From: a virus
DNA: 64,000 bases
Virus record (IMG/VR): IMGVR_UViG_3300036832_000975
Location: 1,050 to 65,049 of that record
Strand: one strand, 5' to 3'
Shown: piece after piece, positions 26,379 to 47,645 of the stretch
Numbering within the stretch: the first letter of the stretch is position 1
How the letters are laid out: each line of letters opens with the position of its first letter
Made by a program: the position numbers and the translations under genes
The notes under the pieces: generated by a model
The model's database searches: none
Told to the model about the DNA's origin: nothing
What the model saw: the letters and a program-made list of their open reading frames with translations, nothing else

Positions 26379-26481
26379 GTTGAGCGTGTCCTTTATTGTT
26401 TGTGGTGCTTGTTCCAAAGTTGGATCGGGGTCCTGGTCGGAACAGGTCCAGGACCCAGGTGTTACATTTTGTAACACTTTT

Positions 26482-45274: not shown

Positions 45275-45345
45275 GACGATGACCCCACTGGTCCCTGGAT
45301 ACCACAAAAGTGCTACATCCTGTAACACATCCTAACATTAAACAC

Positions 45346-45373
45346 AAAAAAGGGCGCGGCTCGCGCCGCGCCC
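45346..45373 (-). terminator. Rho-independent terminator of the early operon
   Basis: GGGCGCGGC-GCGA-GCCGCGCCC followed by TTTTTT on the - strand. Confidence 0.9.
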
Positions 45374-45400
45374 CTTGGAAAGACTAGTTAGGTTTATAGC

Positions 45401-45880
45401 TTAGCGTGAATCTAGCCACATTGCTGCCCCAATCTTGGTTAACGCATATACCAACGCAGGAATAGACAGACCAAGCATTGTACCAGCTATCTGCATGACC
45501 AGATTGTCCGCTCCGCTGGCAAATGCGAGCGCATTGAGTATAGCGGACCATAGGATGGTCCCTAGAATGGCTGGCCGGAACACACGGGTTAGCTTAGTTC
45601 TAAGCTTATCGCTAATCGTGAGTTGCGCTAATTCTAGACTTACAAAGGCGCAGTCGACCCCGACTGCCATCGCCCAGGCTTGGTAAGTCTCACAGTGCGA
45701 TATGGTCCCGATACCTGAGGCTAAATGGTTTAGGGATAACCCGGTTAGGGTCACAGCCACTAACCCAACCGCGCTTGCTGCGAATAATTGGTGCGGGATG
45801 GTTTTACGTTTGGCGCGGGATATTGGTTTTGATTTTGCGCTGGGGATAACTGAGAGTTTGGTAACGTTGGTAGTGGTCAT
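45401..45880 (-). CDS. Multi-TM membrane protein (DUF2637-like), early gene 4
   Basis: Four hydrophobic segments; LS..HL..AWAMAVGVD pattern. Confidence 0.65.
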   Translation of the reverse strand: MTTTNVTKLSVIPSAKSKPISRAKRKTIPHQLFAASAVGLVAVTLTGLSLNHLASGIGTISHCETYQAWAMAVGVDCAFVSLELAQLTISDKLRTKLTRVFRPAILGTILWSAILNALAFASGADNLVMQIAGTMLGLSIPALVYALTKIGAAMWLDSR

Positions 45881-45945
45881 GGTTTGAGTATCTCCGTTGT
45901 AAGTAAGTTGTAGGGCGAGCCTTGCGGCTCGCCCCGTTGGTTTGG

Positions 45946-46110: not shown

Positions 46111-46135
46111 GGTTGAGTACTTCCGGAGAACTACT

Positions 46136-46197
46136 GGTCTCGTCAGGCACGGCCTTACCGTGCGACGGCGCCGCGCTAGCGCGGCGCCGTTTCGACC
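46136..46197 (-). ncRNA. Type II hammerhead ribozyme B
   Basis: GGUC-GAAAC-[GGCGCCGCG CUAG CGCGGCGCC]-GUC-[GCACGG UAAGG CCGUGC]-CUGACGA-GACC; complete core and three stems. Confidence 0.93.
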
Positions 46198-46207
46198 TGT
46201 TGATTAA

Positions 46208-46882
46208 TTACCGGGGAGCGTTGGCGAGCCAATCACGCCACTCGGAACCACGATCGTCTACGAGCTTTCCAGCGTACTTTTTCTGGAGGCTCTTCATGGT
46301 GAGTACTAACCTGTTGAGCGCGTCGAACACGTCGACGTCGTCCTTTGGGTTCACGATTTCATCGGCCTTGACGAGTCGTGCTTCGTGTGCGGCCTTTTCG
46401 GCTTCGCGTTCGGCGCGCTTGACCTCGGTGTCTTGGTTCTCGGGCTTGGTGATGCCGGCCATACGCTTGGCACGGGAGATCAATACCCTGACTGCGACCA
46501 TGACGCGTTCTTGATCCGCTGTGCGGTTTTCGTCGGTGTTCTTGCTGGGATTAAGCTGGTTGTACTTTTTCAGGCCAATGACCCGCTTGGACTCTTCCCG
46601 GTCATAGCCGAGCTTGCGAACCATGTAGCCTTCGGTGAGAGCCTGGATCATATCTCCTAAGACTTGCTCGTTGGTCTTGAACGTGGTGAAAGCCTGAGTG
46701 AGGCTACCGTCCAGCCCAGCCATGCTGGAACCGAACTCGAAGGCAATGTCGCAAGCCTGAGCTGGAGTCATCATCACCACGCTGTTGGGGAGCTTGGTGC
46801 CCGTCATGGCCTTACCCTTGGCCTTGCCGTTGGCCTTGGTCACGGGAGTCGTAGCGGTAACAACAGATTGTACGTTAGTCAT
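46208..46882 (-). CDS. 224-aa hypothetical early protein (gene 2) between the two ribozymes
   Basis: ATG 46882 with AAAGG SD; basic, helical; no family recognised. Confidence 0.75.
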   Translation of the reverse strand: MTNVQSVVTATTPVTKANGKAKGKAMTGTKLPNSVVMMTPAQACDIAFEFGSSMAGLDGSLTQAFTTFKTNEQVLGDMIQALTEGYMVRKLGYDREESKRVIGLKKYNQLNPSKNTDENRTADQERVMVAVRVLISRAKRMAGITKPENQDTEVKRAEREAEKAAHEARLVKADEIVNPKDDVDVFDALNRLVLTMKSLQKKYAGKLVDDRGSEWRDWLANAPR

Positions 46883-46897
46883 GTTGTAAGTGCCTTT

Positions 46898-46976
46898 GTT
46901 CGTGGCTATCTGGCCATCATCAGGCACGGCTTTACCGTGCGACGCGGGATAACCCCGCGTTTCGGCCTTAACGAAC
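46898..46976 (-). ncRNA. Type II hammerhead ribozyme A (extra U after A9)
   Basis: GUUCGU-UAA-GGCC-GAAAC-[GCGGGG UUA UCCCGC]-GUC-[GCACGG UAAAG CCGUGC]-CUGAUGA-U-GGCC-AGAUAGCC-ACGAAC. Confidence 0.88.
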
Positions 46977-47216
46977 GCGCTGTATTGCGGCTTTCACATC
47001 ATCAACACTCACATCAAGAACGTTTGCCATGTGCTGGTAGACAAGCTCACCCATGGCTAACGGATCATTACGATGCATTTCCATCTCTTCATACGTGGCG
47101 TACCTATCGCCACGGTTGTAATGCTGTAGTTCGTGCGCTTCGCGTGCCAGTGCGGCGAACTGTGCGTATGTCATGCGCCGATGTCCGATTTTGGTTCGCT
47201 TGCTGTACGTTTTCAT
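46968..47216 (-). CDS. 82-aa early gene 1
   Basis: ATG 47216 after AGAGGA; first ORF after the early promoter. Confidence 0.65.
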   Translation of the reverse strand: MKTYSKRTKIGHRRMTYAQFAALAREAHELQHYNRGDRYATYEEMEMHRNDPLAMGELVYQHMANVLDVSVDDVKAAIQRVR

Positions 47217-47257: not shown

Positions 47258-47287
47258 ACAATAGCACAGTACATTGGATGTTGTCAA
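47258..47287 (-). promoter_or_regulatory. Sigma70-like early promoter
   Basis: TTGACA-18 nt-TATTGT with TG extended -10. Confidence 0.7.
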
Positions 47288-47645
47288 CTAGCAGGTGTTA
47301 TATGATGTTACACCTTACCCCCGCTCTACCCCTAGCCCGTAAGAATTACTTGTCGGCAGAGCGACCGGCCCAAGGGGATCGCTCGCAAGTGCTTGCGGCT
47401 GCTTGCCCATCCAACAAATAAAATTTGGAATTTTTTGCCATAAATCAACTTATACACTAAAACTATATATGTAAAATTTGAGATTTTTTACCAAAATCAA
47501 ATAATGTACTAGAAAAAATTTAGAACCAGATTTTTTGAGAATATCTAACCAGCCGCCAGTACCAGCGAGACCTACGCGCAAACCCGGCCGGCCGGCGAAC
47601 CACCCCGAGAAGACGTTCATGTCGTAGTGTCACGTAAAACATGTT

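Follow-up and report, generated by a model that had tools for sequence, protein, structure and literature searches.

Hammerhead ribozymes that bracket genes have been described in phages since 2011. Perreault et al. reported prophage hammerheads that flank single genes or short gene blocks, such as the ardA array of A. tumefaciens, and proposed that the transcripts are processed into operon-length or single-gene-length mRNAs (PMC3088659). In that study three arrays were found to cleave in vitro and one in E. coli, and circular or spliced products were considered and not detected. A 2017 review repeats the gene-bracketing layout and still lists the biological role of bacterial and phage hammerheads as an open question (PMC6155905). 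Here we analyzed a window of 64,000 nucleotides (nt) that makes up nearly all of the 65,064-bp IMG/VR virus record IMGVR_UViG_3300036832_000975, of soil metagenome origin, and we examined two hammerheads, hammerhead A (HH-A) and hammerhead B (HH-B), on either side of a conserved 224-amino-acid phage gene, P0001. An earlier reading made from the letters of this DNA (the sequence-only reading) had treated such a layout as not known to be characterized. Because both the 2011 study and the 2017 review describe it, the locus is a clean new example of a layout already known in phages and not a new kind.

The likeness to the Perreault arrays is close. In both cases the ribozymes are of type II, a single gene of a phage transcript is bracketed by same-strand copies a few hundred nt from each other, a role in cutting a long transcript into mRNAs of gene length is proposed, and the question of circles arises; the two copies here also fall within the approximately 2 kb of one phage transcript that delimits such clusters. 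However, the subfamily to which the present copies are assigned is without the pseudoknot between loop I and the 3' tail of the published type II consensus, and it carries an extra U after A9 in a third of its members. A further difference is that syntenic relatives here reveal what the ribozymes replaced, namely a promoter-proximal 5' end and terminators. The reading that we favor, at a probability of roughly 0.7, is that the self-cleaving hammerheads split a four-gene transcription unit into three messages and act as promoter- and terminator-free insulators. The locus provides a natural control, with the same gene bounded by promoter and terminator in eleven relatives and bounded by ribozymes, together with extra genes, in this genome. 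This natural comparison makes the insulator idea directly testable.

Both motifs were located on the minus strand, HH-A at 46912..46967 and HH-B at 46136..46197, 770 nt apart with one open reading frame (ORF) between them. Read in order, HH-A consists of GGCC-GAAA, a 7-bp stem III hairpin, UC, stem I (GCACGG-UAAAG-CCGUGC), CUGAUGA, the extra U and GGCC. HH-B consists of GGUC-GAAA, a 10-bp stem III hairpin, UC, the stem I of HH-A with the loop UAAGG, CUGACGA and GACC. All 13 conserved core positions (C3, U4, G5, A6, N7, G8, A9, G12, A13, A14, the A15.1-U16.1 pair and H17) were present in both motifs; the core of HH-B is a full match to the consensus, and that of HH-A matches except for one U inserted between A9 and G10.1. 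The helices around the core, comprising 7 bp in stem I, 4 bp in stem II and 7 or 10 bp in stem III, contain zero mispairs, and the positions next to the core are paired, G10.1 with C11.1 among them. The topology is type II in both, with stems I and III closed by loops and stem II open. The description of two complete type II hammerheads with a shared stem I and compensated stems, as given in the sequence-only reading, was therefore upheld.

Counting cleavage after H17 places the predicted cuts between C46941 and G46940 in HH-A and between C46164 and G46163 in HH-B. The excised RNA would span 777 nt (46164..46940, minus strand), with the stem I hairpin exactly at its 5' end, the stem III hairpin exactly at its 3' end and only the 224-amino-acid ORF (46882-46208) inside. 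Direct counting agreed with the cleavage sites, product length and ORF proposed earlier. Both motifs sit inside one promoter-to-terminator unit, which accords with the proposal that cleavage would release a single-gene RNA. It had also been claimed that each ribozyme starts at an upstream stop codon; this is accurate for HH-A, which begins right after a TAA stop, and not for HH-B, which begins 10 nt past its stop.

We assessed whether the motifs are genuine in several ways. A descriptor of the core and the three helices matched exactly two sites in the 64 kb, HH-A and HH-B. Among 300 dinucleotide shuffles of the window there were 0 strict matches and 0.05 loose matches per shuffle, compared to the 2 observed, and a chance origin of the motifs is excluded. 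A covariance model, R1, was built from 41 unrelated metagenomic hammerheads with the window's sequences left out; these 41 were the members without the extra U, since a MAFFT alignment of all 70 misplaced that residue. R1 scored HH-B at 68.9 bits (E 5e-26) and HH-A at 61.7 bits (E 6e-23), and no further hammerhead copies were found in the window, where the next-best R1 match reached 12.8 bits. The minimum-energy fold of each isolated motif is the hammerhead (z -3.6 and -4.8). On their sequence and predicted structure, both elements are confirmed as genuine type II hammerheads.

The wider family was retrieved with a pattern that fixed only GUC, stem I and CUGANGA and left GAAA, stem II and stem III free, and this found 85 metagenome and 11 viral loci. 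A complete strict hammerhead was present in 54 of the 75 usable matches, and on inspection most of the other 21 had GAAA, a matching stem II and a stem III interrupted by an internal loop. Since stems II and III were left free and complete hammerheads were nevertheless recovered, this represents a non-circular check on the helices. The retrieved hammerheads carry 85 different stem III sequences. Across the 41 foreign members, double changes were observed at 14 of 17 pairs and 99.6% of cells were paired, in sequences that had been chosen for pairing. The subfamily is characterized by a fixed 4-bp open stem II and a stem I of 6-7 bp, often GCACGG/CCGUGC, with a tiny loop. HH-A and HH-B belong to this subfamily, which is widespread among environmental phages.

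The extra U seen in HH-A was found in 30 of 89 unique members and was invariably U. There are precedents for a residue at this site. In the CChMVd viroid hammerhead, an extra residue is present at the insertion site of HH-A, and when this residue was changed to U, cleavage became 3-4 fold faster (De la Pena and Flores 2001, as related in PMC3705267); Penelope-element hammerheads likewise keep a nucleotide there (PMC4209133). Because of this recurrence in the family and these precedents, we judge HH-A to be a normal variant rather than a copy that has been damaged. Across the family, the stop codon upstream lies at a median of 0 nt and a mode of -1 from stem II, most often with the G of TAG as the first base of stem II, and the start codon of the next gene follows at a median of 25 nt past the ribozyme. 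Contigs carry arrays of as many as six copies, which are spaced at a median of 488 nt.

The transcription unit is approximately 1.9 kb in length and contains four ORFs, all on the minus strand. A consensus scan identified a sigma-70-like promoter (47258..47287; TTGACA, 18 nt, TATTGT with TG) that would drive it, and a terminator scan identified an intrinsic terminator (45339..45376, or 45376-45349 as the end of the unit; 12-bp stem and T run) that would close it. No other promoter-like site was detected by the consensus scan on the same strand between these two positions. The first gene is P0002 (46968..47216), an 82-amino-acid orphan ORF with GAGGA 7 nt before its ATG, which lies between the promoter and the conserved gene. 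The bracketed gene P0001 (46208..46882) encodes an all-alpha protein by its translation and model. It is followed by P0003 (45946..46110; 54 amino acids), the first gene of the predicted third fragment, and by a 159-amino-acid ORF from the ORF list (45401..45880), the last gene of the unit.

We compared this arrangement to that of relatives. Flanks were recovered for eleven P0001 relatives at 12 loci (L004, L005, L006, L008, L009/L010, L011, L012, L108, L109 and L110/L111). In all of them the same 19-bp palindrome and promoter as in the window lie directly upstream of the P0001 homologue, which has a short 5' untranslated region, with a small hairpin at its start in most cases. Immediately after the gene come one or two hairpins of terminator type, most of them with T runs. 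No hammerheads were found beside the P0001 homologues in the 12 related loci, where the best R1 score was 15.3 bits. The promoter in the window aligns with that of the P0001 homologue in five relatives through the -10 and start region; homology stops just downstream of the -10, and beyond the start region the window sequence diverges from the relatives into P0002. P0002 itself was absent from the loci of all relatives compared. In L012, a P0003 homologue follows the P0001 homologue with two hairpins and no ribozyme between them, at the position that HH-B occupies here. From this comparison, it appears that the orphan P0002 was placed between promoter and P0001 in this genome, that further genes follow P0001, and that ribozymes came to stand at the old 5' end and at the old terminators. 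Host-independent mRNA processing by ribozymes, which the earlier reading had proposed, would fit this comparative evidence.

Hammerhead cleavage leaves 5'-OH and 2',3'-cyclic phosphate ends. It is also established that an RNA decays more slowly by the RNase E route when its 5' end is a hairpin or is not a monophosphate, that 3' exonucleases are slowed by 3' hairpins and that poly(A) polymerase requires a 3'-OH. In the insulator reading, the two ribozymes would fold during transcription of the unit and each would cut after its GUC. The predicted fragments are P0002 alone (approximately 310 nt), P0001 alone (777 nt) and P0003 with the 159-amino-acid ORF (approximately 815 nt). At each new 3' end the stem III hairpin would carry a 2',3'-cyclic phosphate, and at each new 5' end the RNA would begin directly in the stem I hairpin, with a 5'-OH and without an unpaired leader; there would be a hairpin at each new end because the type II topology sets the cut between two closed hairpins. 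Every fragment would thereby resemble a primary transcript that is capped by a stem-loop at its 5' end and by a terminator hairpin, as in the single-gene mRNA of the relatives. Accessory genes could then share the P0001 unit while P0001 keeps a defined single-gene mRNA. The analysis shows what the motifs are, where they lie, that they covary across the family and that relatives have other boundaries in their place; from this we infer cleavage in vivo, protection of the ends and a benefit to the phage.

The nearest engineered counterpart is the synthetic insulator RiboJ (Clifton et al. 2018, PMC6206723), with which a hairpin remains at the RNA terminus and the levels of mRNA and protein rise. 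As in RiboJ, a hammerhead before a ribosome-binding site would strip upstream RNA and leave a hairpin on the downstream mRNA. RiboJ differs in that it is a type III sTRSV ribozyme, engineered to include a further hairpin and used once per gene, whereas natural type II copies would cap both 3' and 5' ends here. It was noted that a small hairpin at 46112-46131 (minus strand), after HH-B and before the start of P0003, resembles the extra hairpin engineered into RiboJ. RNase III processing in T7 is similar in that cuts fall between the genes of an early phage message and hairpins are left at the fragment ends. However, that process is protein-catalyzed and host-dependent, and it leaves 5'-phosphate and 3'-OH ends unlike those of a hammerhead. 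The suggestion that the ribozymes replace T7-style processing holds only as an analogy, as the phage is not T7-like: no cultured phage has a DNA polymerase more than 30% identical to its own.

Several observations weigh against the insulator reading. At gathering thresholds, Rfam reported nothing in the window, and with RF02276 (Hammerhead_II) HH-B scored 25.9 bits against a gathering score of 37 and HH-A was unreported even at E 10. The Rfam search that the sequence-only reading had suggested thus recovered one motif, below threshold, and missed the other, and R1 was built because both fell short. The RF02276 family (clan CL00010) and the present motifs share the core, the three-helix junction, the closed stems I and III and the open stem II; unlike the model, the present motifs have no 3' tail that pairs with loop I. 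The low Rfam score is explained by the subfamily being without this pseudoknot: across 90 members the complementarity of loop I to the 3' tail equaled that of the shuffled control (3.07 vs 3.07), and in the two copies of the window it amounted to 2-3 bp. In most type II hammerheads this contact gives fast cleavage at low Mg2+ (PMC3088659), and the motifs without it could be slow to cleave in vivo.

Further points belong on the same side. When wider flanks are included, the minimum-energy fold swaps stem II for other pairings in both motifs. A search of public sequencing runs for this DNA returned only the source soil metagenome and no RNA run. The comparison of ribozymes with terminators sets one hammerhead phage against its relatives and is thus a single evolutionary event, and the P0001 relatives are at most approximately 74% identical by BLASTP. 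As a separate observation in the flanks, the end of P0002 contains GUUCGU, which can form pairs with an ACGAAC located downstream of HH-A (46880-47000, minus strand) and compete with or extend stem II. Across the subfamily, loop III contacts and general extension of stem II by the flanks were not found above control, so a GUCGU-type outer helix around HH-A is a local and not a family feature.

Among the alternatives to the insulator reading, the one that survives best is that the ribozymes mainly tune or lower expression and give the mRNAs no protection, with cuts that uncouple accessory genes from the conserved one so that fragments decay at different rates, and with cleavage perhaps gated by a ribosome terminating at the stop codon that abuts stem II. 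In most members of the family the stop abuts stem II or runs into it, so a terminating ribosome would cover part of the ribozyme; a pseudoknot-less and possibly slow ribozyme would leave room for kinetic control, and regulated cleavage has been raised for phage variants by Perreault et al. (PMC3088659). However, a perfect hairpin would cap both new ends, contrary to what is expected of a decay signal. The P0001 mRNA of the relatives also has a 5' hairpin and terminator hairpins, a design that the hammerheads reproduce. We consider tuning a tentative possibility that is considerably less probable than insulation.

Another question is whether the hammerheads could be passengers or relics of mobile small-gene cassettes, one with P0002 and one with P0003 and the 159-amino-acid ORF, that provide no benefit of their own. 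It was noted that the subfamily borders small non-conserved ORFs in many unrelated contigs, that P0002 is an orphan and that the stem I of HH-A and HH-B is identical to that of many foreign copies. However, the P0003 homologue in L012 fills the same slot without a ribozyme, so HH-B did not simply come with P0003, and the intact cores and perfectly paired helices argue for ongoing selection. No repeats or mobility signatures were noticed around the motifs, where no repeat search was run. This explanation is unlikely.

The sequence-only reading had also raised a possible circular mRNA. Here the 777-nt RNA, once excised, would be closed into a translatable circle, either through reversal of the hammerhead reaction on a chimeric ribozyme rebuilt from the two ends or through a host RtcB-type ligase. 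The end chemistry, a 5'-OH and a cyclic phosphate, is established as suitable. Hammerheads without tertiary contacts strongly favor cleavage over ligation. The chimeric pairing does exist, as GGUC from HH-B can pair with GGCC from HH-A through one G.U pair; it gives no evidence for a circle, since a single GC-to-AU covariation by default leaves one cross direction G.U-compatible and the other C.A-broken, making the match between HH-B and HH-A a coin flip. The ends of the 777-nt RNA would be held only by a 4-bp helix with one wobble. The relatives carry the same gene as an ordinary linear single-gene unit, and no circular or spliced products of such arrays were detected when Perreault et al. 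looked for them (PMC3088659). We regard a circular mRNA as very unlikely.

The strongest point in favor of joined ends comes from other genomes, where copies within a genome keep stem II while stem III is saturated with change, such that the ends of excised fragments can usually rebuild a hammerhead. Stem II differed at 0.178 per variable bp within contigs compared to 0.479 between contigs (0 of 2000 permutations as low), whereas the values for stem III were 0.480 and 0.482 per bp. The stem II comparison covers L059, L106, L098, L078 and 47 other contigs, and in L059 six copies share GGAC/GUCC while every other helix differs. This within-genome constancy bears on whether fragment ends interact, and it is the sole observation that keeps a model of end pairing or ligation alive. 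Among 36 adjacent pairs in other contigs, full cross-compatibility of stem II was found for 22 in the circle direction and for 19 in the splice direction, compared to 18% of pairs from different contigs. No asymmetry between circle and splice was therefore seen in these 36 pairs, and with both directions equally compatible and the relatives linear, the circular mRNA finds no support. The shared stem II may arise because compensatory changes accumulate more slowly in a short helix among paralogues, or it could reflect selection for cross-compatible halves. That it exists so that the ends of the excised mRNA rebuild a hammerhead, by end pairing or covalent closure into a circular or closed-loop bacterial mRNA, is in our estimate highly improbable.

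A parallel to retrozymes had been drawn in support of the circle. The locus resembles retrozymes and viroid-like circular RNAs in that a hammerhead stands on each side of a unit several hundred nt long, whose ends a tRNA-ligase or RtcB-type enzyme could join. Those RNAs do not encode proteins, occur as repeats or replicate, and rely on ribozymes of type III or type I, in which the open helix keeps the ends together. The present unit, in contrast, is a single-copy conserved protein gene with fixed synteny and a linear counterpart in relatives, and its ends would be held by 4 bp. The analogy therefore breaks down on topology, coding content and copy number.

It is hardly credible that the motifs are inactive look-alikes whose GC-rich hairpins only stabilize RNA or cause pausing, an idea to which the sub-threshold Rfam scores, the missing tertiary pseudoknot and the core insertion in HH-A might lend themselves, given that both motifs have 13 of 13 conserved core positions, that the pattern without GAAA, stem II and stem III still retrieves complete hammerheads in most matches, and that the U insertion is a recurrent natural variant with a rate-enhancing counterpart in a viroid hammerhead as related in PMC3705267.

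We sought to further characterize the surrounding genome and the genes of the unit. A nucleotide search of cultured phages with the window returned no match, and the top matches of the DNA polymerase were to Acinetobacter and Xanthomonas phages. P0001 has 68 homologues besides its own record, and the alignment of these homologues backs its ATG start. No Pfam or PHROG match was found for P0001, and Atlas gave only unnamed viral clusters. The AlphaFold2 (AF2) model is confident and all-alpha, with a predicted local distance difference test (pLDDT) score of 80, and no fold match for it was found in PDB or in the AFDB clusters. Homologues of P0002 were found in none of Pfam, PHROGs, viral contigs and a set of 5.8 billion proteins. 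The 159-amino-acid ORF showed only weak family matches in Pfam and PHROGs and no relatives among viral contigs. Between P0003 and this ORF we noted a 9-bp GC-rich hairpin without a clear T run (45913-45934), which may be a further end-protecting or processing element inside the third fragment.

The palindrome upstream of the unit (GTGTTACA, 3 nt, TGTAACAC) lies at 47295..47313, where it abuts the -35 of the promoter. A pattern search found nine copies in the window compared to 0.15 expected, at 26459, 28195, 35481, 39893, 41834, 43658, 44858, 45310 and 47295, all in the leftward half of the genome; the copy next to that of the unit (45310-45328) comes after the terminator. The palindrome is found at the matching position upstream of the P0001 homologue in relatives. 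Because it abuts the promoter of the hammerhead unit and its place is conserved in relatives, this operator-like element is likely the operator of a phage regulator.

In the relative L109, the upstream slot of the P0001 unit (951-1184) holds a gene of 77 amino acids with an Acb2/Tad1 hairpin domain, of an anti-defence sponge family. Because L109 carries this gene there, the P0001 neighborhood is suggested to be a variable slot for accessory genes, like the one that P0002 occupies. Short GC-rich tandem-repeat arrays were also noted directly past the double terminators of four relatives, often at the contig end (L004:3680-3829, L006:3680-3798, L008:3760-3860 and L011:3750-3860).

Two further observations concern the subfamily in other contigs. 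Of 63 members, 60 have an A immediately 5' of stem II and 38 have one immediately 3' of it. In the window the A 5' of stem II falls at 46968 and 46198; since that of HH-B is not part of a stop codon, this A may represent a structural contact and not just coding overlap. Dense arrays were also encountered in unrelated GC-rich viral and metagenome contigs, with 3, 6 and 5 type II hammerheads in 1.5-2.1 kb at L007:3968-5475, L059:411-2533 and L065:27-1708, respectively. Each hammerhead in L007 and L059 lies between a stop codon and a ribosome-binding site of the GAAAGGA type, and in L065 the site is of the AGGAGA type.

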